From assembly GCA_964202905.1 (NCBI GenBank), contig CAXNJO010000013.1, forward strand, positions 75,839 through 139,838: 64,000 bases of DNA. The letters are read 5' to 3'. The position numbers and the translations under genes are program-made. This DNA comes from Polyangiales bacterium (GTDB taxonomy: Bacteria > Myxococcota_A > Polyangia > Polyangiales > JADJQN01). This document shows, in pieces, positions 24,821-51,264 of this stretch; the first letter of the stretch is position 1; each line of letters starts with the position of its first letter. The notes below the pieces were generated by a model. The model did no database searches, was not told the DNA's origin, and saw nothing but the letters and a program-made list of their open reading frames with translations.

Positions 24821-24866
24821 ATCGGCGCGGCGTAGCATGGGCCGCGCAGCGCCGTCGCCTGCGGCG

Positions 24867-26579: not shown

Positions 26580-26703
26580 GCGTCCGAACCTATCAAACAG
26601 CCAGGCGGCTGGCTGTCTGCGTCGCGCATCGCCCAAAAAAGCGAGAGGCCCGGGGCATCGCTGCGCCGGGCCTCGCGGTATCGATCAATCCGGCGCGCAG
26701 GCT

Positions 26704-26916
26704 TCAGATGCAGTCGGGGTGGTATCGGCCGAGGTCGCGGATGACCTCGGGGTCCTCACGGAAGAGCTCGGACCAGCGGACCCAGATGTCGGGGATCGCG
26801 AAGTCGCGGAGGTTGGCGATGGCCGCCGGAGCGTCGTCGTTCAGGTCGACGCGCGAGCCGACGACGTCACGCTCGACGACCTCGCGGGGCTGCACAGGCT
26901 CCGTCGGCGTCGTCGT
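26704..26916 (-). pseudogene. 3' fragment of an unknown gene cut at origin module A
   Basis: Open frame runs up to the GAG boundary at 26917. Confidence 0.4.
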
Positions 26917-28345
26917 GAGGGTAACCGATCCAAGCCACCTTTGCTGAAACGGCGTTTGCTCCGGGGTTTGCGAGTCGGCGAGGCAGAGAAGGTCGCGCTG
27001 TTCGCGCCGGAGCTGCTGGGGGCAGAACTGGGCGTTTTCCCGCGCGAAAGACAGAGCGGTGCAGCAGGACGCGCCGAGGAGCGGTCCGTGGAGTCAACGA
27101 GGGGTGTGCGGCTGCGGTGGGCTACGCGGCGTAGTCGTCGGCGGGGTCTCGGGCCTTGGCGAGCGGCGGCGCCTCGGCGGGTCTGCCGAGGTGACGTAGG
27201 AAGCGCCGGACTTGAACTTGGTCGCGGAGCACAGCCATGAGGCGCAGGCGACCGTGGCACTTGGGGCAGTCGAGCACGTCGATATCGTGGCTGCGGCGGA
27301 GCAGGTGGGCCCAGCTCGCGGTGGGTCGGGTCATCAGGAGGGCGCCGTCGAGGAGCCTGCGGAGGTGCTCGTCGGTGAGGATGTACGGTGAGCAGAGCGC
27401 GGAGGGTGGAGGCTCGTCCGGCGCCGCGGTGTCGGCGGCGTAGAGCAGGTCGATGTCGCGGACATCATCGTCGCTCGGCGCGATGTACGCAGCGGGTGCG
27501 ATGCCGCCGATGTCGTGCTCGTGATGCGCGCAGCCTGGCGATGGCTCTCCGTCGCGCTCACCGCACTCAGGCTCGTTCGGTACGCGCGCGGTGATGCGTA
27601 CGAGCTTCGCGCGGAGCCGACGAGGCTTGGGCACCACGAGCCTTCGCCACGAGTAGCCGGGGGCGAAGACTCCGTGATAGCGGAGCAGCGGATGGCGCGG
27701 ACTCGGCACCAGCGCAGCGATGCGCGCCATGAGCTCGGAGCCCGTCATCACGCGATGGGTCCGAGCGCCGCGGCCGTACTTGGTGCGGTAGCTGTAGCGG
27801 CCGTCGGCGAGCTTCTCGAGGCGCTCGAGCGCGATCGCTGGCCTCGCGCAGTAGCGAATCAAACGCTCGCGACCGATATCGTCGCCGGCTGCGATGAACA
27901 CGCGCGCGTCCAAGTCGAAGCCGTCCTCGGTGCAGAAGTGCTTGGAGTGGATGGCCTTGCGCTCGAAGCGCCGCTCGCCCTCGGTGCTCTGCGACTGCGA
28001 CTCCGACTCCGAGGGCAGAGCGACGAGCTGCCCGTATTTCAGCGCGAGCTGCTGGCAGCTTCGTAGGCTGTCGAGCGCGTCGTCTTGCTCGGGCGACGGC
28101 TCACGCTCGCCCAGATATCCGTGACGGCGCAGCCAGCGAAGGATGCTCTTGCGCGCGCGCAGCACGACGCGCTCGACCTCTGCGCGCGTCGGTGGCGGGA
28201 GCGGGATGAAGCGAACGCCTCGTTCGGCGGGGACGAACACCCCGTCTGTCGCGACGACGTGTGGGTGCACGTTGAGGTTGAGCGAGCCGCCGAAATTCTG
28301 CACGAACGTGAGCGCTCCCGGCTCGCTGCCGGGCACGCCGCTGCG
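26917..28345 (-). mobile_element. IS91/ISCR-like module A (oriIS plus the longest transposase fragment)
   Basis: Starts GAGGGTAACCGATCC; right end approximate, at the junction with a recombinase fragment. Confidence 0.88.
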
Positions 28346-28351
28346 ATGCAC
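27122..28351 (-). pseudogene. IS91-family HUH transposase lacking its N-terminal region
   Basis: TFVQNFGGSLNLNVHPHVVATDGVF (HUH), ERLIRYCARP (Tyr), LRYHGVFAP, and the ISCR-type C-terminus WAHLLRR..DIDVL.CPKC.GRLR. Confidence 0.88.
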
Positions 28352-29491
28352 GAGGCTCGTACCCGATCGGCGAGCGCTTCGACGACGAGGGCTACAGCGG
28401 CGCGACCATCGAACGCCCCAGCCTGGAGAGGCTCATCGCGCGCATCCAGGACGGCGACATCCAGCGCGTCATCGTCTACCGGCTCGATCGCCTCACGCGG
28501 AAGCTCACCGACTGGGCGTTGCTCGTGCGGGTGTTCGAGCGGTTCAACGTCGGCCTCACGGTCGTGCACGGCGCCATCGACGCCGAGGCCGGCTCCCTCG
28601 CGCGGCTGCAGCTCAACCTGCTCGCGACCTTCGCCGAGCTGGAGCGCGACATGATCGGCGAGCGTCTGGCCGACGCCCGCGCCACGAAGAAGGCCCGCGG
28701 AGAACGCGCCGCAGGTCGCGTGCCTCTTGGCTACGCCGCGGATCCGAAGACGAAGCAGCTCGTCATCGTCGAGTCGGAGGCGACCGTCGTGCGCTGGTTC
28801 TTCACGGAGGCCGGGAGCGGCAAGTCGACCGCCGAGCTTGTCGCGCGAGCGAACGCTCTCCGGCTCATCGCGAAGAACGGCAAGCGGGGCGAGTGGTCAG
28901 CGCGCTCCGTTCTGCGCCTCCTGCAGAACCCCGTGTACGCCGGTCGTCGCCCCGATGGCGCGGCCGCAGTGCACACCGCGCTCTTGCCTGTGGTCCTCTA
29001 CGAGCGCGTGCAGGCAGCGATCGTCGCACGCAAGACGAGAGCCACCACGACGCGATCGAAGGTCGACGAGCGCGACGATCCTTTCCTCCTTCGCGGCCTG
29101 CTGGTCTGCGAAGGGTGCGGCCGCACGATGACGACCTCGATGAGCACCGCGCTCACCAAGAAGACCGCCCCGAAAGCGCCGCGCTACTACCGAGGCCGCA
29201 CCGACGGCTGCGACGGCGGTCAGATCGCGGCCAGCGCTGTCGAAGGCATGGTCCTCGATGCGCTTCGCCGGCCCCAGTGGAACTGGCCCGACTCGGCAAA
29301 GGAGCGACTCGGCAAAGGAGCGACTCGCGCTGCTCGCCTCGACGTGGGACGTGCTCTGGCCGCAGAACCGGCGCCGCGCGCTCGCCGACGTGTTCGAGAC
29401 GATGACGTGGCGTTCGCGAACGAACCGGCTGCTGGTGCGACTCCGCGTGGCGGCGAGCCACCCCGGCACGGACGAGACCGCCACCGGCTGA
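28346..29491 (+). pseudogene. Large serine recombinase, 5'-truncated and frameshifted
   Basis: ERFDDEGYSGATIERP, VIVYRLDRLTR, FAELERDMIGER, PLGY, LLQNPVYAG and LLRGLLVCEGCG motifs; a 16-bp tandem duplication at 29289-29320 shifts the frame. Confidence 0.85.
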
Positions 29492-29626
29492 GGCTCCGGC
29501 ACCGCGCCGGCGTAGGCCGCAAGGGCCCTGGCGCTCGGGAAGCGGGCGCGCGGTCGATCGCGCGCAGGCCGTTGCCGGGCTCCTGGACGCGCCGTCACAG
29601 CGTCGCGCGTTGACCGCGCACGGATC

Positions 29627-30106
29627 TCAGCCGTGGCTGAACCCATAGACGGCGAGCAGGCCGTAGGCCACAGCCATGAAGGCGCCTGCGAAGCGCAGCA
29701 CGCCCAGCGTCGTGCGAACCTGTGACGGAAGGTGCTGCTGCTGGCAGAACTCGGCGCGGCCCGCGTGGCTCAAGGTGTGATTGAGGGCCACGAAGATCGC
29801 GTGCGCTGCGACGCCGCCCGAGAGCACCGACAGCAGCTTCAGGTTACCCGCACTGAAATAGGTCATCGAGCCCACCAGCACCGCGATACCCAGGCCGAAG
29901 CTCGCCTCCATGCGGTGAAAGATCATGCCAATGCTCGTCCAGCGGAGCGTGTCCTCCGACGGAGAGTTCGCGAGGACGGCCCGCAGCGGATAGCGGAAGA
30001 GAAAGCGGAGCGCCCAGTCGTTGAAGGAAAAGAACGCGCCGAACATCACGAGGTAGTTCAGCGCGAAGAAGTACAAGGCATAGGTGAGGACGGTCTCGAA
30101 CGGCAT
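29627..30106 (-). CDS. Hypothetical membrane protein
   Basis: About four hydrophobic segments. Confidence 0.6.
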   Translation of the reverse strand: MPFETVLTYALYFFALNYLVMFGAFFSFNDWALRFLFRYPLRAVLANSPSEDTLRWTSIGMIFHRMEASFGLGIAVLVGSMTYFSAGNLKLLSVLSGGVAAHAIFVALNHTLSHAGRAEFCQQQHLPSQVRTTLGVLRFAGAFMAVAYGLLAVYGFSHG

Positions 30107-30186
30107 GGGTCGTGGCTCCTGGTCTCTTACGTCGCGCGGTGGTTGAGGTGTGCGGTCGCGTGGTCGTGGGGCCTCGGAGGGCGCGC

Positions 30187-30651
30187 TCAGCTCGCAGCGG
30201 TCTTCGGCCCGCGCACGACGCGCTCCTCGAGTCCCCGAAGGACGATGAGGAACAGTCCGCCCATCATCCGGGACATCATCGTCTTGCCCATCAACCAGCC
30301 GATGGGCCCGAACTTCACCTCGAAGTCCATGCTCATCTTCGCGCACGACCGCCCCGCATCGACGGGCTCCTTGCTGAGAGTGGCGATGGCCTTGTTGAGG
30401 GGAAGCGAGAACTCCGAGAGCTCGGTCCGGTAGAATCGACCGTCTTGCCAGTCGATGACCTTCTCGACCATCGAGGTTCCGTCCTGGAGGTGGCAACGCC
30501 TGCACGCGCCGACGCCCGCGGTGGCGTCGCTGAGCACGCCCATCTTGCTGCCGCGGGGATGGAAGTCGTCGATGTGCATGAAGCGCCCGAGGACTGCCCA
30601 GACCCGGTCAGCGGACGCCTCGATGTCGATGCTGCGTTCGGTCGTGATCAC
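30187..30651 (-). CDS. SRPBCC (polyketide cyclase/dehydrase) family protein
   Basis: RSIDIEASADRVWAVLGRF...GVGA.RRC...E.VIDW. Confidence 0.85.
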   Translation of the reverse strand: MITTERSIDIEASADRVWAVLGRFMHIDDFHPRGSKMGVLSDATAGVGACRRCHLQDGTSMVEKVIDWQDGRFYRTELSEFSLPLNKAIATLSKEPVDAGRSCAKMSMDFEVKFGPIGWLMGKTMMSRMMGGLFLIVLRGLEERVVRGPKTAAS

Positions 30652-30675
30652 GTGGACGTGTCCATGGTTGCCGCG

Positions 30676-30697
30676 AATCTAACCGATCAGTTAGATT
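30676..30697. promoter_or_regulatory. Palindromic operator, likely bound by the divergent TetR
   Basis: aatctaac-cgatca-gttagatt between divergent SRPBCC and TetR genes. Confidence 0.7.
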
Positions 30698-30761
30698 GGC
30701 GTCAAGCGGGCCGACATCGACGTCGGGCGTGTAAGGTCCAGTCAGGAACGAGAGGAACCGC

Positions 30762-31364
30762 GTGGGACGAAAGAAGGGCTACGAACCAGGAGACCTCGTC
30801 GAATCCGCGATGGCGCTGTTCCACGCGCACGGCTTCGCCGGCACCTCGACGCAGATGCTGGTGGAGAAGCTCGGCGTGAACCGCAACAGCATGTACGCGG
30901 AGTTCGGCAGCAAGCAGGCGCTCTTCGACGCGGCTCTGCGGCGGTACGAGCAGCAGTTCATGAACGACGTCTTCGGCCAGCTCGAAGCCGCCGACGCTGG
31001 CCTCGACTCGATCGCCGCGCTGTTCGAGCGCTTCGGCAAGGATGCCGCGGGCCCCGCCTCGGGACTTGGCTGCCTCCTCTGCAATACGGCGGTAGAGCTC
31101 GCGGGCGACGATTCCAGCGGGGAACCCTTCGTCCAGCGATACTTCGGGCGCGTTCAGGCCGCCTTCCAGAATGCCTTGGCCAACGCCCGACGAGCGGGAG
31201 ACCTCCAGCTTGGCGTCGTGGCCGTGGACGAAGCGCGTTTCCTGACGGCAACCGCCCTGGGCATCTTCGTCATGGTGCGTGCGCGCACGGCGCCCATCGT
31301 CGTACAAGGCTCGGCTCGGGTGGTGAAGCGCCATCTCGACGGCCTGCGGGCCAAGAAACCGTGA
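30762..31364 (+). CDS. TetR/AcrR family regulator
   Basis: MGRKKGY...AMALF..HGF.GTS...LGVNRNSMYAEFGSKQALF; GCLLCN. Confidence 0.92.
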   Translation: MGRKKGYEPGDLVESAMALFHAHGFAGTSTQMLVEKLGVNRNSMYAEFGSKQALFDAALRRYEQQFMNDVFGQLEAADAGLDSIAALFERFGKDAAGPASGLGCLLCNTAVELAGDDSSGEPFVQRYFGRVQAAFQNALANARRAGDLQLGVVAVDEARFLTATALGIFVMVRARTAPIVVQGSARVVKRHLDGLRAKKP

Positions 31365-31503
31365 GAGGGCGACGGGCAGGTGAGTCGGCCCGGCCAGCGT
31401 GCGAGGCGCGGTCACGAGGTTGGGCGCGGCGTGATCGGCAGCAGCGCGCTGGCCAGTTAAACGTCAGCGGCTCCGTCCCAGAAAAACGGGCTCCGGAGGG
31501 TAA

Positions 31504-32796
31504 GGCGGCTGATCACAACAAGTTGATCAAGTTCATCGGGGTCGGATCTCATAGTTCCATTCGCCGTGGAAGTTGTTCCTGTGAAGAGCCACCTGATTCA
31601 TTTCGGCCTTCGTGATGACGATCCCGGTGGGATAGCGGCCCTTGTCGAGCTTGGCTTTGACGCGGAGTCCGGCAGACGTTCGCGTGTGACCGATGAGCTC
31701 GACTACCGTTTCGAAGGTGCGCAGCGGCTTCCCGCGCCAGTTCTGCGTGATGTGGCAGAAGAGGCGGTGTTCGATCTTGTTCCACTTGCTGGTGCCCGGA
31801 GGAAAGTGGGAGACACAAACACGGACGCCGAACTCGCTGGCGAAGTTCTGCAGCTCGAACTTCCATGCGCGAAGCCGATAGCCGTTGCTGCCGCCCGCAT
31901 CGGCGGTGATGAAGATCTCGTGTGCATCGGGATACGCGCGCAGGCCCATCGTTCTCCACCACTGGCGGATCGATGCGACGGCAAACGCCGGCGTGTCGTG
32001 GTCGCGGCCGACGCTGACGTACGCCTCATTGCGCGCCATGTCGTAGACGCCGTAGGGGATGGCTTTGCCCAGCGCGTCGTCAGGGAAGTCGTGCACCAGC
32101 ACCTTCTCCGGCGTGCCCTGAGGCTGCCACTCCTTTCCCGCGTTCTTGAAGTCGCCGACGAGTTCCTTCTTCTTCGTGTCCACGGAGATCACCGGCTGTC
32201 GCCGCCCGAGGAAGTTCTCGGCCGTGGCGTTGATGTGCTCGAACTGAGCATTGCGATCGGGATGCACCGCGCCCTCGGTGCTTTTGCGCGCCGACTGGAG
32301 GCTGTAGCCAAGCTCGTGCAGCAAGCGACCCACTGTCGTGGAGCTCACCCTCCAGCCACCCTTCACCATCGCGGCGGCGAGCTGTGCGCGGCTCTTGCAC
32401 GTCCAGCGAAGTGGCGACATCGGGTCGCCGCGCGTCAACGGATCTACCAACGCTTCGAGTGCCGCCTTGAGCCCCGGCTGGATCTGCTCGAGTCGCGGAC
32501 GCCCGCCGCCAGGGCCACGCACTCGTCCAGTCAGTGCGACCCCCAACTCCAATTCCCGACGGCCATTGCGAATCGTCTGCCTCGCAAGGCCAGTCGCTGC
32601 CGACACCAAGGCATCGCCACCGTACCCGATCGCCCGAGACTCCGAAGCCGCCCAGAGACGCCGGGCCCGCTCGTCGAACAACCCGCTGACCGCCACGTAC
32701 TTGGCCACGATGGTCTCTTCGATCGCTGTGTTGCGGCGCATCTCCACCTTAGATCACCACTCGCTCAAGATGGCAAGCTAGATCTGGCCGGGTTCC
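31504..32796 (-). mobile_element. ISAzo13-family IS, copy 1 (1293 bp)
   Basis: Reverse complement of 43697-44989; flanks TAA and TTA do not form a matching duplication. Confidence 0.9.
31533..32747 (-). CDS. ISAzo13-family DDE transposase
   Basis: GDPMSPLRWT.KS, ISVDTKKKELVG, HDF, ADAGGSN, PPGTSKWNKIEHRLF and WNY motifs. Confidence 0.93.
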   Translation of the reverse strand: MEMRRNTAIEETIVAKYVAVSGLFDERARRLWAASESRAIGYGGDALVSAATGLARQTIRNGRRELELGVALTGRVRGPGGGRPRLEQIQPGLKAALEALVDPLTRGDPMSPLRWTCKSRAQLAAAMVKGGWRVSSTTVGRLLHELGYSLQSARKSTEGAVHPDRNAQFEHINATAENFLGRRQPVISVDTKKKELVGDFKNAGKEWQPQGTPEKVLVHDFPDDALGKAIPYGVYDMARNEAYVSVGRDHDTPAFAVASIRQWWRTMGLRAYPDAHEIFITADAGGSNGYRLRAWKFELQNFASEFGVRVCVSHFPPGTSKWNKIEHRLFCHITQNWRGKPLRTFETVVELIGHTRTSAGLRVKAKLDKGRYPTGIVITKAEMNQVALHRNNFHGEWNYEIRPR

Positions 32797-32903
32797 TTAG
32801 AGTCACGCAAGACCCTTCCACGGACAGAATGGACCGTCCAGACGAGGCTTACCGAACCTCGGCGCGGCACAACGTTTGGAGCTCGTGCCCCGACTCGGCC
32901 GGG

Positions 32904-33170
32904 CTACCCCGTCGTCTTCTGGGCTTCGTCGGAATGGGTTGTTTCCGCAGGGGGGAACAAGTGACTCATTGGAACCTTGTAGGCAAGAGCAGTTGCAACC
33001 AAGGAAGCAATGGTCACGTTTGTCTTGCCGTTCTCGACACGCTGTAAACTGGTCCAGTGGATGCCGATGAGCTCGGCTGCTGCTTCACGCGACAGACCCC
33101 GAGCCTTGCGAAGCTCACGAAGACGAGCTGCCAGGCCGCGCCCGCTCTCGCTCGATCGCAGCAACAACCT
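32904..33170 (-). CDS. XRE-family HTH protein (start uncertain)
   Basis: RLRELRKARGLSRE.AAELIGIH...QRVENG..N.T. Confidence 0.75.
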   Translation of the reverse strand, partial: RLLLRSSESGRGLAARLRELRKARGLSREAAAELIGIHWTSLQRVENGKTNVTIASLVATALAYKVPMSHLFPPAETTHSDEAQKTTG

Positions 33171-33216
33171 CGGGACGCTCCCAGACCTCTGAACGGTCGT
33201 GATCGTTGGGGGGCGT

Positions 33217-34151
33217 GAGGGTAACCGATCCAAGCCACCTTTGCTGAAACGGCGTTTGCTCCGGGGTTTGCGAGTCGGCGAGGCAGAGAAGGTCGCGCTG
33301 TTCGCGCCGGAGCTGCTGGGGGCAGAACTGGGCGTTTTCCCGCGCGAAAGACAGAGCGGTGCAGCAGGACGCGCCGAGGAGCGGTCCGTGGAGTCAACGA
33401 GGGGTGTGCGGCTGCGGTGGGCTACGCGGCGTAGTCGTCGGCGGGGTCTCGGGCCTTGGCGAGCGGCGGCGCCTCGGCGGGTCTGCCGAGGTGACGTAGG
33501 AAGCGCCGGACTTGAACTTGGTCGCGGAGCACAGCCATGAGGCGCAGGCGACCGTGGCACTTGGGGCAGTCGAGCACGTCGATATCGTGGCTGCGGCGGA
33601 GCAGGTGGGCCCAGCTCGCGGTGGGTCGGGTCATCAGGAGGGCGCCGTCGAGGAGCCTGCGGAGGTGCTCGTCGGTGAGGATGTACGGTGAGCAGAGCGC
33701 GGAGGGTGGAGGCTCGTCCGGCGCCGCGGTGTCGGCGGCGTAGAGCAGGTCGATGTCGCGGACATCATCGTCGCTCGGCGCGATGTACGCAGCGGGTGCG
33801 ATGCCGCCGATGTCGTGCTCGTGATGCGCGCAGCCTGGCGATGGCTCTCCGTCGCGCTCACCGCACTCAGGCTCGTTCGGTACGCGCGCGGTGATGCGTA
33901 CGAGCTTCGCGCGGAGCCGACGAGGCTTGGGCACCACGAGCCTTCGCCACGAGTGGCCGGGGGCGAAGACTCCGTGATAGCGGAGCAGCGGATGGCGCGG
34001 ACTCGGCACCAGCGCAGCGATGCGCGCCATGAGCTCGGAGCCCGTCATCACGCGATGGGTCCGAGCGCCGCGGCCGTACTTGGTGCGGTAGCTGTAGCGG
34101 CCGTCGGCGAGCTTCTCGAGGCGCTCGAGCGCGATCGCTGGCCTCGCGCAG
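33217..34151 (-). mobile_element. IS91/ISCR-like module B (935 bp)
   Basis: Near-identical to the first 935 bp of module A; ends at ...ctcgcgcag. Confidence 0.93.
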
Positions 34152-34155
34152 GCGG

Positions 34156-34685
34156 ATGAGTCAGACTCTGAGAAGCCGTCCACCGGGCACCATGAAGCTG
34201 ACAAAGCTCCAAGACTATCTGCGATGCGAGCGTCAGGTTCACGTCGCACTGCGTTCCAGTCCGAAGTCAGTCGGCGCAGCCCCCATCGACGATGTCACGG
34301 TGTCCGTGTCGGACGATGGAATCATGAGAATCGCGGATGGGCGCTCAGGACGAAACTCGTTTCGAGTGTTTTTTGCGGGGCGCGTCGAGGACATCGATGG
34401 AATCCCAACATTTGTGGGACACTCTGCAATCGCACCGGAGGTAGATTGGATACAGTGGTTGTTCGCCGTGCCCTTCGTTCTTGCAACGATCGCGATTGTC
34501 TTCGCGCGTGCGACGGGCGAATCGGAAAGCGACCATTCCCCGCTGTGGACTTGGGTTGTCTACGCCGGACTTGGAGTGGTTCCCATTCTCGTGCGAGTGG
34601 CCGCTTGGATAGCTTCGTCAGAAAGCCACGAATACGTCGTGAGCGCTTTGCCAGCGCTGCTTCGCAAGCAGCTGTTCGCGGCCGG
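34156..34685 (+). pseudogene. Two-TM hypothetical protein, lower GC, cut at the GAG of module C
   Basis: The ORF reads into the origin sequence (…GR|VTDPSHLC). Confidence 0.55.
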
Positions 34686-34945
34686 GAGGGTAACCGATCC
34701 AAGCCACCTTTGCTGAAACGGCGTTTGCTCCGGGGTTTGCGAGTCGGCGAGGCAGAGAAGGTCGCGCTGTTCGCGCCGGAGCTGCTGGGGGCAGAACTGG
34801 GCGTTTTCCCGCGCGAAAGACAGAGCGGTGCAGCAGGACGCGCCGAGGAGCGGTCCGTGGAGTCAACGAGGGGTGTGCGGCTGCGGTGGGCTACGCGGCG
34901 TAGTCGTCGGCGGGGTCTCGGGCCTTGGCGAGCGGCGGCGCCTCG
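34686..34945 (-). mobile_element. IS91/ISCR-like module C (260 bp)
   Basis: Matches the first 260 bp of module A. Confidence 0.93.
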
Positions 34946-35709
34946 CCGGGCTCGCCGAACAGGGCGGGGTCATCGGTGCGCTTCCGTCCCTGCGCGTGCA
35001 GCAGCTCGTGCCGGTCAACGAGCGTGAAGCGGTGACGTCGATGCTCGCCGGCCTTGAGCGCGCCGCGGTCGAACACGTTGCTGTACACCGCTCGCGCTCG
35101 CGGCGGAGGCTCGGCGCGGTGGGCTGGCTGGCGCGAGGCCGCAGCTCGTGTGGTCGCAGTTCGACATCCCTGGAGCGCCGAGCACCGCGGCCGTCGCTCG
35201 ACGTCTCTTCGGCGAGGCCGAGCACACCGTGGTGCTGTGCCACGTACTCGATCGGCCACTGGGCGGACGGCGATGAGCCCCCGCAGAACCCCGTCCTCGT
35301 CCCTCTCGCCGAGCGCATGGAGGCGGTGCCCGCCCTGAAGGTCCGCCTCTTCTTGAACGTTGCCCGCCGCAAGGCGCTCGAGGGCGCCCCGTCCACCGAG
35401 GTCGTGCAGGACTTCCGCCGGCGTTTCCTCACGTACGTCTGGCCGGCTGGCGCTCGCCTCCCGGCGATCTACTACGACCCGCGCAGCCTCGAGCGCAGCG
35501 ACGCCGTGCTCCACGCCAAGTGCATCGTCGTCGACGATGCGAAGGCGCTCATCACGTCGGCCAACCTTGCGGAAGCCGCGCAGGAGAACATCGAGGCCGG
35601 CGTGCTGCTCGAGGACCCCGTGTTCGCGAAGGCGCTGCGACAGCAGTTCGACTCGCTGATCGACGCCGGGTTGGTGCGCCTGCTGCCCGACCTGCGGGGC
35701 TCCACGTGA
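34946..35709 (+). pseudogene. DISARM DrmC-like phospholipase D nuclease, 5'-truncated/degraded
   Basis: VRLFLNV, WP..RLP.IYYDPRSL, LHAKCIVVD (HKD), ITSANL and NIEAGV motifs. Confidence 0.72.
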
Positions 35710-36660: not shown

Positions 36661-36680
36661 CGGCGAGACGCCAGTCTCCA

Positions 36681-39762: not shown

Positions 39763-39823
39763 GGGGCGGCGATGCCGCGGGGCCGATCCGAAGACCGACC
39801 CCGCGGCGTTCGTTCCGCGACCT

Positions 39824-40030
39824 TCAGTCGTTGTTGCCCAGCGGCCCGAACTGCTCGAAGTCGTCGCCGACGTTGCCGACGCTGCCCGTGACGGTGCCGA
39901 TGGGCTCCTTCGGCTGCGGCTCCCCGCGCGAGGCCCGGTAGACCGGGTCGTGCGGGTTCAGCTGCCTCGACCTGTTGTCGAGTTCAGCCTGCTTCGGGGT
40001 GGAGGGCTTCGATGCGTTGCGATGGCTCAT
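39824..40030 (-). CDS. Small 68-aa protein (DNRSRQLNP..Y..SRG) upstream of the GT-rSAM gene
   Basis: GGAG RBS upstream; co-oriented, about 60 bp before the GT-rSAM start. Confidence 0.6.
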   Translation of the reverse strand: MSHRNASKPSTPKQAELDNRSRQLNPHDPVYRASRGEPQPKEPIGTVTGSVGNVGDDFEQFGPLGNND

Positions 40031-40329
40031 GGTGCTGTCTCCGGTGGGTTGCCGTGGAGCACTCGCGAATCCGATCACCTCGGGGCCGCCGGACCAATGG
40101 CGCACAGGCTCGCGCCTGTGGAACGGATCGTTGAGGAGTCGAGGGTTGAGCTGGCCCGACGCGGTACGTTCCCAACGTGCACGGCTGCGAAACCGTGAAC
40201 GCCCCCGGCGACTCCTCGGGGTGAAGGGAGGTAACGCGTCGATGGAAACGATCGGCTGAACCCCGGCCGACCGTCAAGAGGGGCGCCGCGACAGAGGGCG
40301 CCGCGACACGGAGATGGATGCCTCCGCGC

Positions 40330-41442
40330 CTACGCGCCCTCGCCCTCTGGCGGGGCACCAGAGGCCAGCGGCGCGAAGAGATCCATCAGCTGCACGAGGC
40401 GCTTCCGGACAGCAGCCACCACCGCGGGCTTCTCCTCACCGACGGGGACATCGATTGCGACAGCCGGGAAGTCCATCCAGCCGCTCGCCAGTTGGCATCC
40501 CTGGGCCTCGAGAGGCCGCGCGATGGACCATGCGATTTCCCGCCTGCTCACGAAGTCCGAACCGCGGGAGCCGTGATGAGGGTCGTACCAGATCGGGAAG
40601 GAACCCGACTGCACCCATCGGTTGACATCCAAGCGCAGCGATCCGCTCCAGCCTCGCTCCGTCTTGCAGTACCGGAGGTAGTAGCCCTTGCCCGCGGTGA
40701 GCCGCGTTCCCTTCTGGAGCAGGAGCCGGTCCGCCACCAGCTGCTCGATGACGGCGTCGACCAGATCCGAGAACTCGAGGACGCGCCGGTAGACTGGCGA
40801 CGAGAGCTCCGACCGGGTGACGGGGAGGAACGCCTCGGTGTCCATCCGCTCGCAGAGCCCGTCGAGCTGGGCGAGGTCGGCGACGCGGTCACGCTCCCCG
40901 GTGGCCTCAAGCTCGGCCCGAACGCTCGCGAGGAGCCGACGCCAGGAGATCAGGACGAGTTCGGGCCCACCGGAGGCGCCCCCGACCCAGAGCCCGGGCT
41001 CCGCCGCGCGAGGGTCGCGCAGTGTGTGACCCACGGCCGCGCAACGCTCGCGCAGCTCGCGCCAGAGGACATCGCCACGAATCTCAGGTGCGACGAACGC
41101 GAGGAGACCGCCAACGGCGAGCCGGCCAAGGTAGGTCGCTGGTTGGTTGTCCGTGAGCGCCGCCCAGAACTTGGCCTCGACGACGACGCGCTCTGAACCG
41201 GCCACGTCGATGCCGACGAGGTCCGGACGCTCGCCGTCCTTCCCCGTGCTCTGGGATACGAACCGAAGCTCAGGGAGCTCGACCGCCGCGGGTCGGAACG
41301 CCGCCGCGAAACCCCGGCGCGCCGCTGGCGAGACGCTGAGGAGGAACAGCAACGCTTCGGTAGCCAGGTTCTCGGGCGACTCAGCAAACCGCAGCGCGAG
41401 GTGCCCGAAGAGGGTCGTCGTGCCCGCAGCAGGTACCGTCAT
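40330..41442 (-). CDS. PD-(D/E)XK nuclease-superfamily protein
   Basis: ENLATEAL..., RPDL...VVVEAKF...NQP..Y. Confidence 0.7.
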   Translation of the reverse strand: MTVPAAGTTTLFGHLALRFAESPENLATEALLFLLSVSPAARRGFAAAFRPAAVELPELRFVSQSTGKDGERPDLVGIDVAGSERVVVEAKFWAALTDNQPATYLGRLAVGGLLAFVAPEIRGDVLWRELRERCAAVGHTLRDPRAAEPGLWVGGASGGPELVLISWRRLLASVRAELEATGERDRVADLAQLDGLCERMDTEAFLPVTRSELSSPVYRRVLEFSDLVDAVIEQLVADRLLLQKGTRLTAGKGYYLRYCKTERGWSGSLRLDVNRWVQSGSFPIWYDPHHGSRGSDFVSRREIAWSIARPLEAQGCQLASGWMDFPAVAIDVPVGEEKPAVVAAVRKRLVQLMDLFAPLASGAPPEGEGA

Positions 41443-41579
41443 GATCCAATCCTATGCGATCGGCCGCGTACCGTGAGGACGCATGCGCACGACGGGACGA
41501 GGGCGCGCAAGAACCGCCCACGCTCCTCCTATCAGGAGGGTGAGGCGGACCCGCCTCGTTCACCCCAAGGAGGTTCCAC

Positions 41580-41898
41580 ATGACCGCAGCAGCCCAGGCC
41601 GCGGAGCGCACCGCTCCGTCCATCACCCCGTCGTCCCCGCTTCGCCCTCGCCGAGACCAGCACGAGCGCTGGATCGCGCACACCCACCCGATCGACTTCG
41701 AGGAAGCCGCCCAGCTCGTGCTCGACGCCCACGCCGAGGACGGCGTGCGTGACGACGTTGTCGCCCACGACGTCCGGACCTGGGCCTTCGGCAACGCCGA
41801 GGGCTCGATGGCCATCGCGCCGGTCCCGCTCCCCGGCCGTGAGCCGATGCAGCCGATGCCGCTGCGGGAGCTCGCGTTCTCGCAGCTCTGCCAGCGCA
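41580..41898 (+). pseudogene. N-terminal fragment of a mobile-element protein (DUF932-like), cut at the GAG of module D
   Basis: AGGAGG RBS; ...LRELAFSQLCQR ends at the boundary. Confidence 0.45.
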
Positions 41899-42847
41899 GA
41901 GGGTAACCGATCCAAGCCACCTTTGCTGAAACGGCGTTTGCTCCGGGGTTTGCGAGTCGGCGAGGCAGAGAAGGTCGCGCTGTTCGCGCCGGAGCTGCTG
42001 GGGGCAGAACTGGGCGTTTTCCCGCGCGAAAGACAGAGCGGTGCAGCAGGACGCGCCGAGGAGCGGTCCGCGGAGTCAACGAGGGGTGTGCGGCTGCGGT
42101 GGGCTACGCGGCGTAGTCGTCGGCGGGGTCTCGGGCCTTGGCGAGCGGCGGCGCCTCGGCGGGTCTGCCGAGGTGACGTAGGAAGCGCCGGACTTGAACT
42201 TGGTCGCGGAGCACAGCCATGAGGCGCAGGCGACCGTGGCACTTGGGGCAGTCGAGCACGTCGATATCGTGGCTGCGGCGGAGCAGGTGGGCCCAGCTCG
42301 CGGTGGGTCGGGTCATCAGGAGGGCGCCGTCGAGGAGCCTGCGGAGGTGCTCGTCGGTGAGGATGTACGGTGAGCAGAGCGCGGAGGGTGGAGGCTCGTC
42401 CGGCGCCGCGGTGTCGGCGGCGTAGAGCAGGTCGATGTCGCGGACATCATCGTCGCTCGGCGCGATGTACGCAGCGGGTGCGATGCCGCCGATGTCGTGC
42501 TCGTGATGCGCGCAGCCTGGCGATGGCTCTCCGTCGCGCTCACCGCACTCAGGCTCGTTCGGTACGCGCGCGGTGATGCGTACGAGCTTCGCGCGGAGCC
42601 GACGAGGCTTGGGCACCACGAGCCTTCGCCACGAGTGGCCGGGGGCGAAGACTCCGTGATAGCGGAGCAGCGGATGGCGCGGACTCGGCACCAGCGCAGC
42701 GATGCGCGCCATGAGCTCGGAGCCCGTCATCACGCGATGGGTCCGAGCGCCGCGGCCGTACTTGGTGCGGTAGCTGTAGCGGCCGTCGGCGAGCTTCTCG
42801 AGGCACTCGAGCGCGATCGCTGGCCTCGCGCAGTAGCGAATCAAACG
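41899..42847 (-). mobile_element. IS91/ISCR-like module D (949 bp)
   Basis: Near-identical to the first 949 bp of module A. Confidence 0.93.
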
Positions 42848-42974
42848 GAAAGGCTGTCCACGCGGTCGAAGGATTCACGCCCCCCGACGCCTCGCAACGC
42901 AGGCGCCTCGCGCGGTGAGCCGGCGCGCTCGATTGCAGGATGTGCGACGCGGTCGATGTGGCTACTATGCGGCG

Positions 42975-43433
42975 ATGCTCACCAGCCGGTACTTCGGATC
43001 GATCGCCGCCGACCACGCGAAGACGCAGATCGCGCGCGGCGACGCGCAGCTACGCGTGGACATCAACCTCGCAGATCCGTCGGCATGTACCCAGGCGGCG
43101 ATCGATGCCGTCGATCGCGCGATCGACGAGCTCGATTCTCGCGAGGCCGCCGCACGTGCGGCGATCACTGCGGTGATGGGCGATGACGAGCGACAGCCGG
43201 CGCAGTTCTGGCAGTTCTATCGCGACGAAGTCGACGGATTCGGCGACCTCGCACGGGACGCCTTCGTCTCGACTCTGGTGCTCGTCCGGGTCGGCTTCTA
43301 CCCCGACGAAGTGTCCGACACCGCATCGCACATCGTGCTTGATTTTGCGGTCCGTGGGCCCAACACGGATCAGCTCCTCGTGGCGAAGTTCCACGCCGAC
43401 GGCTCGCTCGGGGAGATTGCCTGGGAGAGCTGA
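42975..43433 (+). CDS. DUF2004-like protein
   Basis: YFG...RVGFYPD...VLDF...TDQLLV.KF...I.WES. Confidence 0.6.
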   Translation: MLTSRYFGSIAADHAKTQIARGDAQLRVDINLADPSACTQAAIDAVDRAIDELDSREAAARAAITAVMGDDERQPAQFWQFYRDEVDGFGDLARDAFVSTLVLVRVGFYPDEVSDTASHIVLDFAVRGPNTDQLLVAKFHADGSLGEIAWES

Positions 43434-43462
43434 CTCGGTCCTCTGTAGGCGTCAACCGACCT

Positions 43463-43688
43463 TCAGTCGTCGGTCTGCAGAAGAGTGCGCATCTGGGCGA
43501 GCACCCCCGGGATTCCTAGGAGCGGAGCCCACACCCACCACCAGAATTGCGAGACGAGCATGCAGACGGCGGACGCACCAAGGCCGATCAACAGCGCCGA
43601 ACCCACCCACCGTGCGATGGACTTCTGAGTTCGCGGTTGACCATAGAACTCTACCCCCTTGAGCACTACCGGCGCGCCGAGGAATAGA
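43463..43688 (-). pseudogene. Small two-TM membrane protein fragment abutting module E
   Basis: Hydrophobic ORF running towards the GAG boundary. Confidence 0.4.
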
Positions 43689-43696
43689 GAGGGTAA

Positions 43697-44989
43697 GGAA
43701 CCCGGCCAGATCTAGCTTGCCATCTTGAGCGAGTGGTGATCTAAGGTGGAGATGCGCCGCAACACAGCGATCGAAGAGACCATCGTGGCCAAGTACGTGG
43801 CGGTCAGCGGGTTGTTCGACGAGCGGGCCCGGCGTCTCTGGGCGGCTTCGGAGTCTCGGGCGATCGGGTACGGTGGCGATGCCTTGGTGTCGGCAGCGAC
43901 TGGCCTTGCGAGGCAGACGATTCGCAATGGCCGTCGGGAATTGGAGTTGGGGGTCGCACTGACTGGACGAGTGCGTGGCCCTGGCGGCGGGCGTCCGCGA
44001 CTCGAGCAGATCCAGCCGGGGCTCAAGGCGGCACTCGAAGCGTTGGTAGATCCGTTGACGCGCGGCGACCCGATGTCGCCACTTCGCTGGACGTGCAAGA
44101 GCCGCGCACAGCTCGCCGCCGCGATGGTGAAGGGTGGCTGGAGGGTGAGCTCCACGACAGTGGGTCGCTTGCTGCACGAGCTTGGCTACAGCCTCCAGTC
44201 GGCGCGCAAAAGCACCGAGGGCGCGGTGCATCCCGATCGCAATGCTCAGTTCGAGCACATCAACGCCACGGCCGAGAACTTCCTCGGGCGGCGACAGCCG
44301 GTGATCTCCGTGGACACGAAGAAGAAGGAACTCGTCGGCGACTTCAAGAACGCGGGAAAGGAGTGGCAGCCTCAGGGCACGCCGGAGAAGGTGCTGGTGC
44401 ACGACTTCCCTGACGACGCGCTGGGCAAAGCCATCCCCTACGGCGTCTACGACATGGCGCGCAATGAGGCGTACGTCAGCGTCGGCCGCGACCACGACAC
44501 GCCGGCGTTTGCCGTCGCATCGATCCGCCAGTGGTGGAGAACGATGGGCCTGCGCGCGTATCCCGATGCACACGAGATCTTCATCACCGCCGATGCGGGC
44601 GGCAGCAACGGCTATCGGCTTCGCGCATGGAAGTTCGAGCTGCAGAACTTCGCCAGCGAGTTCGGCGTCCGTGTTTGTGTCTCCCACTTTCCTCCGGGCA
44701 CCAGCAAGTGGAACAAGATCGAACACCGCCTCTTCTGCCACATCACGCAGAACTGGCGCGGGAAGCCGCTGCGCACCTTCGAAACGGTAGTCGAGCTCAT
44801 CGGTCACACGCGAACGTCTGCCGGACTCCGCGTCAAAGCCAAGCTCGACAAGGGCCGCTATCCCACCGGGATCGTCATCACGAAGGCCGAAATGAATCAG
44901 GTGGCTCTTCACAGGAACAACTTCCACGGCGAATGGAACTATGAGATCCGACCCCGATGAACTTGATCAACTTGTTGTGATCAGCCGCC
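43697..44989 (+). mobile_element. ISAzo13-family IS, copy 2, with a TAA target duplication
   Basis: TAA at 43694-43696 and 44990-44992. Confidence 0.93.
43746..44960 (+). CDS. ISAzo13-family transposase
   Basis: Protein identical to 31533-32747. Confidence 0.93.
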   Translation: MEMRRNTAIEETIVAKYVAVSGLFDERARRLWAASESRAIGYGGDALVSAATGLARQTIRNGRRELELGVALTGRVRGPGGGRPRLEQIQPGLKAALEALVDPLTRGDPMSPLRWTCKSRAQLAAAMVKGGWRVSSTTVGRLLHELGYSLQSARKSTEGAVHPDRNAQFEHINATAENFLGRRQPVISVDTKKKELVGDFKNAGKEWQPQGTPEKVLVHDFPDDALGKAIPYGVYDMARNEAYVSVGRDHDTPAFAVASIRQWWRTMGLRAYPDAHEIFITADAGGSNGYRLRAWKFELQNFASEFGVRVCVSHFPPGTSKWNKIEHRLFCHITQNWRGKPLRTFETVVELIGHTRTSAGLRVKAKLDKGRYPTGIVITKAEMNQVALHRNNFHGEWNYEIRPR

Positions 44990-45948
44990 TAACCGATCCA
45001 AGCCACCTTTGCTGAAACGGCGTTTGCTCCGGGGTTTGCGAGTCGGCGAGGCAGAGAAGGTCGCGCTGTTCGCGCCGGAGCTGCTGGGGGCAGAACTGGG
45101 CGTTTTCCCGCGCGAAAGACAGAGCGGTGCAGCAGGACGCGCCGAGGAGCGGTCCGTGGAGTCAACGAGGGGTGTGCGGCTGCGGTGGGCTACGCGGCGT
45201 AGTCGTCGGCGGGGTCTCGGGCCTTGGCGAGCGGCGGCGCCTCGGCGGGTCTGCCGAGGTGACGTAGGAAGCGCCGGACTTGAACTTGGTCGCGGAGCAC
45301 AGCCATGAGGCGCAGGCGACCGTGGCACTTGGGGCAGTCGAGCACGTCGATATCGTGGCTGCGGCGGAGCAGGTGGGCCCAGCTCGCGGTGGGTCGGGTC
45401 ATCAGGAGGGCGCCGTCGAGGAGCCTGCGGAGGTGCTCGTCGGTGAGGATGTACGGTGAGCAGAGCGCGGAGGGTGGAGGCTCGTCGGGCGCCGCGGTGT
45501 CGGCGGCGTAGAGCAGGTCGATGTCGCGGACATCATCGTCGCTCGGCGCGATGTACGCAGCGGGTGCGATGCCGCCGATGTCGTGCTCGTGATGCGCGCA
45601 GCCTGGCGATGGCTCTCCGTCGCGCTCACCGCACTCAGGCTCGTTCGGTACGCGCGCGGTGATGCGTACGAGCTTCGCGCGGAGCCGACGAGGCTTGGGC
45701 ACCACGAGCCTTCGCCACGAGTGGCCGGGGGCGAAGACTCCGTGATAGCGGAGCAGCGGATGGCGCGGACTCGGCACCAGCGCAGCGATGCGCGCCATGA
45801 GCTCGGAGCCCGTCATCACGCGATGGGTCCGAGCGCCGCGGCCGTACTTGGTGCGGTAGCTGTAGCGGCCGTCGGCGAGCTTCTCGAGGCACTCGAGCGC
45901 GATCGCTGGCCTCGCGCAGCCATCTTCGTGGTCCGGTCAGAGCGCCCG

Positions 45949-45968
45949 ATGTGCTACGAGTAGCACAT
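45949..45968. promoter_or_regulatory. TA autoregulatory operator palindrome
   Basis: atgtgcta-cgag-tagcacat overlapping the antitoxin start. Confidence 0.7.
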
Positions 45969-46242
45969 GAAGTCAGTCGGCGTGCGGGAGCTGCGGCAGC
46001 GGGCGAGTGAACTGCTCCGGCGGGTCGAGGCGGGCGAGTCGATCGAGGTGACGGATCGAGGGCGGGCGGTCGCGGTGCTCGCGCCGCTCGCGACTCGTTC
46101 CGCGCTCGAGCGTCTGCGCGCAGCGGGTGAGACCAGCGGCAAGAGCCGAGGCATGGCGGGGATCGGTAAGCCGCTCGACGTCGCGCCGGGGCAAGAGTCG
46201 GCGTCGAGCGTCCTCGCGCGTCTGCGCAAGAGCGAGCGCTGA
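45967..46242 (+). CDS. Phd/YefM-family antitoxin
   Basis: VGVRELRQRASELLRRVEAGE.IEVTDRGRAVA.L.P. Confidence 0.92.
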   Translation: MKSVGVRELRQRASELLRRVEAGESIEVTDRGRAVAVLAPLATRSALERLRAAGETSGKSRGMAGIGKPLDVAPGQESASSVLARLRKSER

Positions 46243-46243
46243 G

Positions 46244-46633
46244 TTGGCGCTCGCGTATCTGGACTCGTCCGCGCTGGTGAAGCTGGCGGTGCGTGAGCCG
46301 GAATCGGCGGCGCTCGTCCGCTTTCTGCGGGGCAAGACCGAGCTGGTGTCGAGCGCGCTCGCGCGGACCGAGGTCGCGCGAGCGCTGCTGCCGCTCGGCG
46401 CGGCGGCCTCAGCGCGTGGTCGCGAAGTGCTCGATCGCGTCGAGCTCGTCCGCGTGAACGACCGTGTGCTCGCGCTCGCCGGCACGCTCTTGCCGCTCGA
46501 GCTGCGCTCGCTCGACGCGATCCATCTCGCCACCGCCGAGCTCGTCGGCCGCGTGCGCGTCATCGTGACCTACGACGAGCGGATGGCCGCAGCGGCACGC
46601 GCGATGAAGTGGAAGGTGGCGGCTCCGGCGTAG
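46244..46633 (+). CDS. vapC: PIN-domain VapC toxin
   Basis: YLDSSALVKL...E...TE...LRSLDAIHLATA...TYD. Confidence 0.92.
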   Translation: MALAYLDSSALVKLAVREPESAALVRFLRGKTELVSSALARTEVARALLPLGAAASARGREVLDRVELVRVNDRVLALAGTLLPLELRSLDAIHLATAELVGRVRVIVTYDERMAAAARAMKWKVAAPA

Positions 46634-46766
46634 GTTGGGAAGGCATCGCGCAGACCGTCGCGCGTCGCGGGCTGCGCGTGTGCAAGCTGACGCCGCGGGG
46701 AAACCGCCGCGGATGACCCAATACGCACGCCGCCGCGGATCGCCCCGTGAGCGCGCCGCTTGGGGA

Positions 46767-47228
46767 TCACTCTCGGCAGTACGTCTCGATGGTGCCGCGG
46801 ATGCGCACCAGCTGCGCCTGCACCTCGTCGAACCGGCGTCGCAGCGCGTCGGGATACGCGGTCCAGGACTCGTCGCCCTCCGGCGTCTCCACGTAGATGT
46901 TTGGGCAGACCGGCATCTCCGGGGGGATGGTACCGAGCACGCTCGTCGTGGCGTCGACGAGCGCGCTTGCGCTGCGAACCTGCGCCTTGCATTGCGCAAC
47001 GAGGAGGCGGGGGACGGGGTCGCGGTGGGCGAAGAGCTGCCGCACTTGTTCACGCCGCTCCACCTCATCGCGATACTCCTGCAAGATTTGGGCGTCCGGG
47101 GTGTTCTTGAGTAGTTCCGGGAACGCCTCGCGAAACACCGCGCACGCGCCGTGACGCGCGTCGTCGCGGCCGCCGCCGCAGCCACCGAGGAGAACGAGGA
47201 GACACAAGATCATGCTGGTCCGTTTCAT
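46767..47228 (-). CDS. Putative lipoprotein
   Basis: MKR..hydrophobic..LGGC lipobox. Confidence 0.6.
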   Translation of the reverse strand: MKRTSMILCLLVLLGGCGGGRDDARHGACAVFREAFPELLKNTPDAQILQEYRDEVERREQVRQLFAHRDPVPRLLVAQCKAQVRSASALVDATTSVLGTIPPEMPVCPNIYVETPEGDESWTAYPDALRRRFDEVQAQLVRIRGTIETYCRE

Positions 47229-47377
47229 CGCCGGCCTCCGACGTGCAGGCGTAGCGTACATTCATCGTTGCCGTCGAGTCTCGCGCGCGACACCAGTCCG
47301 CGCACAACCCTCGATCGCCTCGCGCGCTCGACACCGCCGGGTGGTGAATAGCAAGCCCGAGCACGCGTCCGACCGCC

Positions 47378-48010
47378 GTGTCCCCGACTGCCACTCTGCT
47401 CTGCGCGTATGTCATCCTCGCGTTCTCGATGCCTGCGGCGGCGCAATCGCTGCGGCCGTGGCAGGAGCGCCCCGAGCGGCGCGAGCTTCGCTATCGCGAG
47501 CAGCGCGCCTTTCGCTCCGTGTCGATCGGCCGCTCTGGTCTCTTCGAGATCGGAGATGCCTGCCGGTCCACCTTTGACGGGGCGGAGCGGGAACAGCTCT
47601 GCGTCGCGACGGTCGTCGCGGCTCGCGTGCGCTACTCCCCGGCGCCGCTCATCCGCGCGTGCGCAAGCGCCTTCTCCGGCGACGACGCCGAGATGGCCTG
47701 CGTCCAGACCGCGCTCGTCTCCCACGCCGAGCCCTCCGCGAGCGTCGCCGCCTGCGATCGCGCGTTCGTCGGTGACGAGAACGCGCTCCGCTGCATCGAG
47801 CGCGTCGCCGCCACCGCCTCCCGTGGTGGGGCCGTCGGCATCGAAGCGATCATCGCATGCGACCGCGCGTTCTCTGGCGACGACAACGCCCTCGCATGCC
47901 TCGAAGCGCTGCCGTGCGGGCCGTACGATCCCGCAGAGTTCGTCGCCTACTGCGACCAGCAGAGCGCGGGCGACCTCGCCGCGCTGAGCTGCCTGCAGAG
48001 CTTTCGCTGA
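47378..48010 (+). CDS. Secreted Cys-repeat protein
   Basis: Signal peptide; about four ACxxAFxGD...C repeats. Confidence 0.65.
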   Translation: MSPTATLLCAYVILAFSMPAAAQSLRPWQERPERRELRYREQRAFRSVSIGRSGLFEIGDACRSTFDGAEREQLCVATVVAARVRYSPAPLIRACASAFSGDDAEMACVQTALVSHAEPSASVAACDRAFVGDENALRCIERVAATASRGGAVGIEAIIACDRAFSGDDNALACLEALPCGPYDPAEFVAYCDQQSAGDLAALSCLQSFR

Positions 48011-48052
48011 CGCGTTCGGAGCGGGGTACGGCGACACACGACGCCGCCGCCA

Positions 48053-48391
48053 TCACCGCCCAGTCTGTACCTCGTTGTCGAGCACGCGGACGCCGCGCGC
48101 GCGCTTGGCCTCTTCCGTGGCCGCGCGCAGCTTCTCGTAGAGCGCCATCACGTCGGTCTTGAGGCCTTCGATGCGCACATCGGGAGTCGAGCGGTCCATC
48201 GCCGTGAGCACGATGTTGCCAGTCCCCGCGAGGCGCTGCGCGAACGGGCGCTCGACGACGAAGTCGTTGATTCGATAGATGTCGATCTGATCCATGCGCT
48301 TCGAGAAGAGGCCCGTCTCGACCACCACGCGCTGCGTGGTGAGCCGGTACTTCACGCTGCGCGCGCGGAACCAGTAGTAGATGAAGCCGCA
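48053..48391 (-). pseudogene. Bacterial PH-domain (bPH_2) membrane protein, N-terminus cut by module F
   Basis: YRLTTQR...GLFS...RI.D...QR..G.GNI; the frame runs to the GAG boundary. Confidence 0.7.
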
Positions 48392-48433
48392 GAGGGTAAC
48401 CGATCCAAGCCACCTTTGCTGAAACGGCGTTTG
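48392..48433 (-). mobile_element. IS91/ISCR-like module F (42-bp origin stub)
   Basis: GAGGGTAACCGATCCAAGCCACCTTTGCTGAAACGGCGTTTG, followed by the IS21 end. Confidence 0.88.
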
Positions 48434-49986: not shown

Positions 49987-50017
49987 TGAGCTTGCCCCGG
50001 TTCAGTAGACAGGTTGC

Positions 50018-51246: not shown

Positions 51247-51264
51247 CGAAGCGGGGCAAGCTCA

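Follow-up and report, generated by a model that had tools for sequence, protein, structure and literature searches.

According to PMC13181058, transposases of the IS91 family of insertion sequences (ISs) initiate at oriIS, frequently fail to stop at terIS and use a single-stranded circle for insertion, and the target of IS91 sensu stricto is CTTG/GTTC. IS801 yields miniatures that are anchored at ori (PMC3189936). For ISCR1 (IS common region 1), PMC6218425 and PMC13393415 describe outward promoters and a variable set of genes at the oriIS side; both state that transposition of ISCR elements has had no experimental demonstration. The circle-and-recombination model of Toleman is retold in PMC7707992, and the ISCR28 sandwich of Yuan, which consists of a remnant ori, a gene and an intact element, in PMC12772301. 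IS91-type elements also occur beside catabolic genes, where an 11-kb circle was observed (PMC5737581). The locus discussed here is a row of partial copies of one such element, with cargo DNA between them, in a 64,000-nucleotide stretch from a Polyangiales bacterium (assembly GCA_964202905.1, contig CAXNJO010000013.1, positions 75,839 to 139,838). This whole stretch is called the window below; it is C13:75839-139838 of the source genome G000, which has 19 contigs, and its GC content is 71%. Judged from sequence comparisons, an ISCR-type HUH rolling-circle transposase probably built the row as an array that captures gene fragments. Relatives provide the strongest evidence, the window itself being an inert example.

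The Row of Origin Stubs

Six modules in the window open with GAGGGTAACC on one strand and are 98-100% identical to one another in a self-BLAST of the window (Table 1). An initial annotation, made from the letters alone, had placed all six correctly; among its module lengths only that of M1 (about 1430 bp) had to be changed. The 42 bp given for M6 also stand, and this module is short because it was hit by an IS21- and an IS3-family element, not because a stub ended there. A seventh ori had been overlooked, namely an 8-bp remnant at 31496, cut by a second copy of the 1.3-kb ISAzo13-family IS that interrupts M5 8 bases in, the stub of M5 picking up again at 44990. All seven ori sites are co-oriented within 21.5 kb. 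The ori 8-mer occurs 11 times in the 5.68 Mb outside the window, and about 0.02 occurrences are expected per 21.5 kb of one strand, vs 7 here. Comparison of the origin with the whole genome gave no further ori copy in its 19 contigs.

Every copy begins at one base, 205 bp past the stop codon of the transposase, and the flanks of each module are mutually unrelated, with no target-site duplication. The element has no inverted match among its self-hits and thus no terminal inverted repeats. No outward promoter of the sigma-70 type was found at ori, and no CTTG/GTTC tetranucleotide was seen before ori at the 7 flanks in the window or at 70 flanks in relatives. Because it has no tetranucleotide target, the element would lie outside IS91 sensu stricto (IS91, IS801, IS1294). 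Single-nucleotide differences between the module copies are confined to 4 positions (173, 503, 739 and 907), and 907A is common to M4 and M5 only. The stub ends span 260-1438 bp, with two at 934-935; the base after the stub end is G in 2/5, and a shared G is a possible reading for the other 3/5.

Only the 3' part of the transposase gene is present in the modules, and none carries a full transposase, as the initial annotation had said. This part matches Pfam Y2_Tnp (PF04986, E 1e-19, above the cut-off), which is the sole domain seen. Its best NCBIfam match is NF052416, ISCR clade Ia, at positions 177-419 of 509, which for this fragment falls below the cut-off. The C-terminus of the fragment is complete, and H29, H31 and Y167 are invariant in the transposase. 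A single tyrosine is a trait of ISCR transposases. By its transposase and its ori, which in relatives starts G.G..TA, the array element appears to belong to an ISCR-like branch of the IS91 family; the earlier assignment of the module starts to IS91/ISCR origins is supported by the Y2_Tnp match, the ISCR clade Ia match and the exact ori start.

The 5' part of the element is absent from G000. Other IS91-family transposases encoded in this genome match that of the array only in part, at 28-47% identity, and their origins are different. Two of this family, at C6:389874-390887 and C15:82055-83068, look intact; they are 36% identical to the array's transposase and have a different ori. A second row, of another IS91-family element, lies at C3:295174-306485 and comprises three co-oriented ori starts (306485, 303902 and 300114) and older pieces, while further copies of its element are found on C2, C5, C17 and C18.

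Polar Rows in Related Genomes

The transposase is present in 166/301 genomes of the class. A survey covered 60 loci, taken from 150 among about 500 matches and chosen for a reached C-terminus and longer contigs, with several loci per genome. Stubs starting at ori lie on the ori side of the element at 15/60 loci (10 genomes), amounting to 24 stubs of which 23 are co-oriented, vs 2 on the ter side, one of these two being fused to the ori of another copy. The DNA examined was 464 kb on the ori side and 436 kb on the ter side, and the nominal p is 1e-5 for loci that are not independent. Several kinds of match had been dropped before this count: partial matches off ori (L119, L147, and one each at L112 and L124), flank duplicates (L146, L149), an IS-split full copy (L170), internal pieces of the transposase (L134, L151, L152, L168), and long or full second copies (L123, L132, L138, L150, L158, L159).

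The relative G200, an assembly of 3 contigs, contains three rows with 17, 9 and 4 stub hits, and every one of them ends in a full or near-full element. Within 30 kb of G002 there are two long copies and seven whole stubs, the latter of about 160 bp, and similar rows occur in G004, G016, G072, G206 and G225. The position at which the stub ends is nearly fixed in each genome, at 100, 103, 101-102, 126 or mostly 160 bp; these internal ends are terminator-like and share no hairpin. The first base after the stub is G in 48/56 resolved ends, and 5 more have G as the last matched base. A further 14 of 70 stub ends, unresolved by the anchor, stand outside this count, and 10 of them come from G206, where the full adjoining copy of the element (the master) has G at this place. 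In the masters the base that follows the fixed stub end position is mostly C or A. A stub joined directly to the next ori was seen once in G200 and once in G294; in the latter genome, five long co-oriented copies of one IS91-family element also occupy 85 kb (C2:14809-99385). Finally, in one G200 array the divergence of the stubs grows with distance (rho 0.64, p 0.048, n 10); this gradient is weak in G200a and G002 and absent in G200b and G206.

In G002, the array blocks of C16 recur on contig C5 in a different order, and the overlap of C16 with C17 at both ends resembles a circle; these are either strain variants or effects of the assembly.

Cargo Donors and the Base at the Joints

Copies that match a cargo from end to end at 98-100% were found in the same genome for 7/38 cargos tested in five relatives; the best 40 candidates were scored for each cargo, and short donors may be missed. 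Four of the seven belong to G002 (4/11 cargos), namely a 454-bp piece from the interior of nuoD, 198 bp out of an ABC permease, a 1.2-kb FG-GAP piece and 1.2 kb of a glycosyltransferase region. The others are in G206 (1/4) and G200 (2/17), and no clean donor was found for G225 (0/4), G016 (0/2), the distal cargos of G200 (0/9) or those of G200b (0/3). The 3-4.5 kb fetched around each of the seven source loci held no trace of the element. Five further cargos have a homologue of 78-83% in their own genome that starts or ends at the joint, as if they had been taken from related species.

The exact donors also show which base stood at each joint. The cargo begins with G at 6/6 stub joints, and the base past the cargo is G at only 1/8 ori joints; because of this difference, the stub joints look like target cuts and the ori joints like termination points. 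One block in G200 occurs three times, with differing left and right ends. In the same genome a 340-bp stretch (L114:9890-10229) is an exact copy of C2:3479-3818 and lies between head-to-head origins, with ori joined on each strand.

Joints of the window were also compared with homologues in G000. The gene cut by M4 is 93% identical to C6:225812-225438, and the bacterial PH-domain gene that is cut before M6 is 83% identical to C2:419645-419340; at both places the homologue continues. Taken together, at 4/4 joints with a homologue in G000 (left of M4, left of M6, left of 31496 and right of M1) the homologue, at 83-95%, runs on, its continuation is missing from the array, and the match stops at the joint or within a few bases. 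Two joints are further backed by contigs of other sequencing runs, from the 4/20 listed runs whose records were compared with the window. At the right end of M1 a contig of run X2 matches 28080-28354 and then continues for 1100 letters unlike the window, and the recombinase contigs of runs X5 and X6 start to match at 28354; at 31495, the matches of C2:519256-519307 and of a contig of run X1 both come to an end.

Proposed Mechanism and Alternatives

The unit of these rows is an ori, a stub and a cargo in one direction, and in relatives such units accumulate next to a full element, on its ori side. The relatives also show a preferred internal stub end, cargo that starts from a G, and some cargos copied from distant, intact host DNA. 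These features could arise if the transposase nicked the ori of the master, copied the stub and halted at an internal terminator. The 3' end of the stub would then be joined to a target cut 5' of a G, and the cargo strand would be displaced, the donor being left or restored, until release at a loosely chosen point. The unit might be added at the resident ori either by the transposase, for which ori would be its own cut-before-G site, or as a circle through recombination between stubs. The element of the window would stop late, making this a long-stub and now masterless example.

In its full form, the proposal is an integrase-free polar capture, in which arbitrary chromosomal or incoming DNA would be copied, with no element left at the source, and filed before the element's own origin, the arrays being movable as circles. 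Its chance of being right in all these parts seems slightly short of even. That no integrase is involved had been part of the initial annotation and agrees with the 3 hits to PF00589 in G000, which are on C6, C8 and C11 and not on C13. The position of the cargo on the ter side of each stub is likewise supported, and the relatives add the polarity, the fixed internal end and the clean donors. The idea that units were made in trans is probably unneeded, because the arrays of relatives mostly end in a full element and M6 is so placed.

A different order of events has been proposed for ISCR elements. In this two-step route the element inserts beside the donor cargo, a second insertion or aberrant replication gives a circle, and RecA recombination in the ori region builds the array; the donors would look clean since those lineages were lost or the circle changed cells. 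Both the retold model (PMC7707992) and the retold ISCR28 sandwich (PMC12772301) speak for it, stubs of 100-1400 bp provide homology, and the identical G206 stubs that are unlike their master, together with the reordered block of G002 C5/C16, suggest recombination between stubs. However, insertion inside essential genes such as nuoD would be required, the G rule is absent at the ori joints (1/8), and with recombination alone there is no need for the row to end in a full element. As a whole this route is unlikely; at the integration step it overlaps the best explanation, capture by the transposase.

It is also improbable that the rows are debris in a plastic island, where miniature ori-end elements inserted singly near their parent, as those of IS801 do, and recombination between co-oriented copies and IS deletions removed the DNA between them, so that the flanks would not rejoin. 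IS801 does give one-ended products of 229, 360 and 679 nt, and the authors of that study view the fragments mainly as recombination sites (PMC3189936). The G that follows stub ends is compatible with plain target choice; moreover, the window shows two evident IS deletions, M2 may be a plain insertion, and isolated stubs exist. Yet G would be expected as the next donor base at ori joints that were insertion sites, and it was seen at 1/8; neither the polarity of 24 vs 2 nor the end-to-end copies of distant, intact, element-free loci (454 bp of nuoD, 198 bp of the permease) is explained. Repeat-induced misassembly is very improbable. In its favor are the lack of a record across the whole window array, the stretch 32899-33210 without cover, and the mutual overlap of G002 contigs around the array of that genome; but the copies carry distinct single-nucleotide differences and distinct ends, both flanks are natural neighbors in 3 relatives, two joints are backed by contigs of other runs, and unrelated assemblies, one of them made up of 3 contigs, repeat both the design and the base rule.

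Several observations weigh against capture by the transposase. In the window, the array is spanned whole by no record and 32899-33210 is uncovered in 4/4 runs, and no circle or activity was observed in the same four. The stubs are longer and more varied than the usual 100-160 bp, and a shared hairpin at the stub ends was rejected as a rule (3/12 ends in the top 5% of windows, all three in G000). The flanks of M2 have a low and similar GC content (0.60 and 0.57) and could be one divergent gene pair, and the protein of cargo 2 has a homologue in 0/400 genomes; M2 may be a plain insertion, so the earlier claim that flanks do not rejoin, which holds at the four joints with a homologue, possibly fails here. 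Mapping the cargos to donors, which had been proposed as a check, gave no exact own-genome donor for the window (0/7), and 31/38 cargos of relatives lack one beside the seven with clean donors. The survey loci were hand-picked and are not independent, and 45/60 have no ori-side stub. One stub in G200 and one in G002 point in the opposite direction, and some stubs have no full element in the fetched DNA (G206 C1:70151, C1:1919998 and C2:351990; G002 C1 and C12). The same 4 sites set all 5 G206 stubs apart from the adjoining full element, and in G200b the stub farthest away has the very sequence of the full element; because of these two findings the stubs cannot simply have been copied in order from their neighbor.

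Cargo and History of the Locus

The cargos measure, in order, 3.1, 0.42, 0.53, 6.95, 0.84 and 2.47 kb. Thus the earlier statement that unrelated DNA of about 0.5-7 kb follows each module is right for cargos of 0.42-6.95 kb and wrong for M6, which has an IS21-family element on its right side and no cargo.

Table 1. Coordinates of the array, its cargos and its surroundings in the window
Feature	Positions	Strand	Description
Left boundary repeat	24338..24832	+	3' end of host gene X (22904-24757) and spacer
Gene Y	24867..26636	-	TIGR03790-family protein with MYXO-CTERM tail (NCBIfam); inside the insert
Gene Z remnant	26704..26916	-	70 codons open up to the ori of M1; apparently cut
M1	26917..28354	+	oriIS and transposase 3' part; 1438 bp; open reading frame (ORF) 27122-28351 on the minus strand, HUH motif, one Tyr
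Cargo 1a	28354..31495		5'-cut large serine recombinase, membrane protein, SRPBCC protein, TetR regulator (Pfam)
Ori remnant no. 7	31496..31503	+	GAGGGTAA; remainder lost at the IS end
ISAzo13-family IS, copy A	31504..32797	-	Flanks TAA/TTA, no target repeat; apparent deletion
Cargo 1b	32798..33216		XRE-type HTH gene, 61% GC
M2	33217..34151	+	Ori stub, 935 bp
Cargo 2	34152..34685		Orphan ORF, open into M3 without a stop, 59% GC
M3	34686..34945	+	Ori stub, 260 bp
Cargo 3	34946..41898		DrmC-like phospholipase D piece; frameshifted glycosyltransferase/radical-SAM/WG-repeat gene(s); unknown ORFs; gene cut after 106 codons by M4
M4	41899..42847	+	Ori stub, 949 bp
Cargo 4	42848..43688		Two ORFs without a known family
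M5	43689..45919	+	Ori stub, 935 bp without the IS; split by copy B
ISAzo13-family IS, copy B	43697..44990		Inside M5; TAA repeat
Cargo 5	45920..48391		Phd/YefM antitoxin and PIN toxin pair, two unknown ORFs, 5'-cut bacterial PH-domain gene
M6	48392..48433	+	42 bp of ori; probable former master copy, being last in the ori-to-ter direction
IS21-family element	48434..49982	+	Cut
IS3-family element	49983..51264	-	No target repeat; apparent deletion
Right boundary repeat	51269..51766	+	Native genes next

Both ends of cargo 1a match a single locus, C2:515571-519307, at 90-95%. The serine-recombinase/TetR/SRPBCC block that makes up this cargo is probably a mobile element of its own; three studies have it at 90-99% in their lake and estuary runs. 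Cargo 3 has no end-to-end donor in 300 genomes of the phylum, in which only its conserved glycosyltransferase/radical-SAM part was matched (23/300). This glycosyltransferase/radical-SAM/SPASM/WG-repeat block, at 36681-39762, is frameshifted in the window and about 70% conserved in those 23 genomes.

The whole array lies in a 26.4-kb insert (24833-51268) that is absent from relatives, because gene X directly adjoins the genes to the right of 51766 in G001, G002 and G004. Gene X and its neighbor W are adjacent in L235 and L236 as well, L233 being omitted from this count of empty sites as possibly redundant. The insert is bounded by a direct repeat of 498 bp and 91% identity (24338-24832 vs 51269-51766). 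Gene Y or Z was found beside X at 0/15 loci, and gene Y in 0/3 genomes of the family with the query used. The boundary repeat suggests, more weakly, that the array arrived whole in the form of a single circle, through crossing-over within a captured part of gene X, linear transfer with duplication being the alternative. In the 5' part of gene X (23041-23226), an 18-bp unit is repeated in tandem about ten times.

The master was probably M6, before the IS21- and IS3-family elements and a deletion removed it, which would leave the array inert. Both ISAzo13-family copies sit at the same TAA of ori; an inversion between them was considered and rejected, as reversal gives no target repeat at copy A. 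Insertions of ISs at a fixed place inside ori stubs were seen in three genomes, namely at 31496 and 43689 in the window, at stub positions 56 and 88-93 in G002 and at 50-61 in G200; either the IS targets ori or a split stub moves as a unit.

Among the compared runs, X2 contains a longer element and another ori flank, and X1 an additional stub end at position 813. The X2 contig has a depth of 17.7 over the stub vs about 5 elsewhere, which fits several copies; it gives no copy number and is not used as support. In metagenome contigs the exact ori pattern was found in 0 stretches and the transposase at 3 short loci.

Comparison with Known Systems

Miniatures of IS801 and sandwich capture by ISCR1 and ISCR28 were known already. 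What appears to be new with respect to the published work on ISCR and IS91 elements is the long polar stub arrays and the clean, element-free donors. No publication describing either was found in a search that covered subscription journals thinly and judged some papers by title or abstract. That the locus stands outside the resistance context, which the initial annotation had emphasized, is correct but not new by itself, as ISCR8-type elements are described beside catabolic genes (PMC5737581).

The ISCR1 complex class 1 integrons share with these rows an HUH transposase, an oriIS located 3' of its gene and variable genes on the oriIS side (PMC6218425, PMC13393415), as well as repeated units proposed to enter as circles (PMC7707992). 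The rows differ in having no integron or 3'-conserved segment (3'-CS), no 3'-CS (qacE-delta1, sul1) domains being found among 50 window ORFs scanned, and in that the repeats are short ori stubs, with up to about 16 stub hits per row. Moreover, the cargo here is often a gene fragment, no resistance genes were recognized, and no outward promoter of the sigma-70 type was found. The ISCR28 sandwich is a single unit of the same design; compared through its retelling in PMC12772301, it lacks the many units, the fixed stub end, the G rule and the clean donors seen here. Like the stubs, the miniatures of IS801 are anchored at ori and have preferred internal ends, and read-through takes adjacent DNA; unlike them, they are described as simple insertions at a tetranucleotide and not as polar arrays, whereas here a single G is conserved (PMC3189936).

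The variable genes of ISCR elements lie on the oriIS side, which simple read-through would not carry. With the dozens of natural joints of known donor in these arrays, a base rule that is not the same for the two kinds of joint, and apparently intact elements in relatives, the competing models can be tested. If the proposal is true, many myxobacteria store captured genes and fragments, and this store provides homology for moving whole islands between species. If the polar capture in particular is true, it would be a bacterial counterpart of fragment capture by Helitrons and a general form of the way in which ISCR1 handles resistance genes.

Helitrons are HUH rolling-circle elements that capture fragments of host genes and are defined by a Rep-helicase fusion protein. 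The present elements differ from them in being bacterial, in having no helicase domain seen, and in keeping the cargo in a row at one locus. With integrons they have in common a co-oriented row, unrelated cargo, a repeat at each joint and an apparent growth beside the gene of an enzyme. In contrast to integrons, there is no tyrosine integrase on the contig, the edges of the cargo ignore the edges of genes, and the row is not one of whole-gene cassettes bounded by attC, since the repeats are transposon ends and genes are cut (no attC model was run). Thus, the rows in this lake myxobacterium and its relatives suggest an integron-like collecting of DNA without an integrase, and on present analysis they would be neither an integron nor a Helitron, combining an integron-like layout with a Helitron-like capture of fragments.

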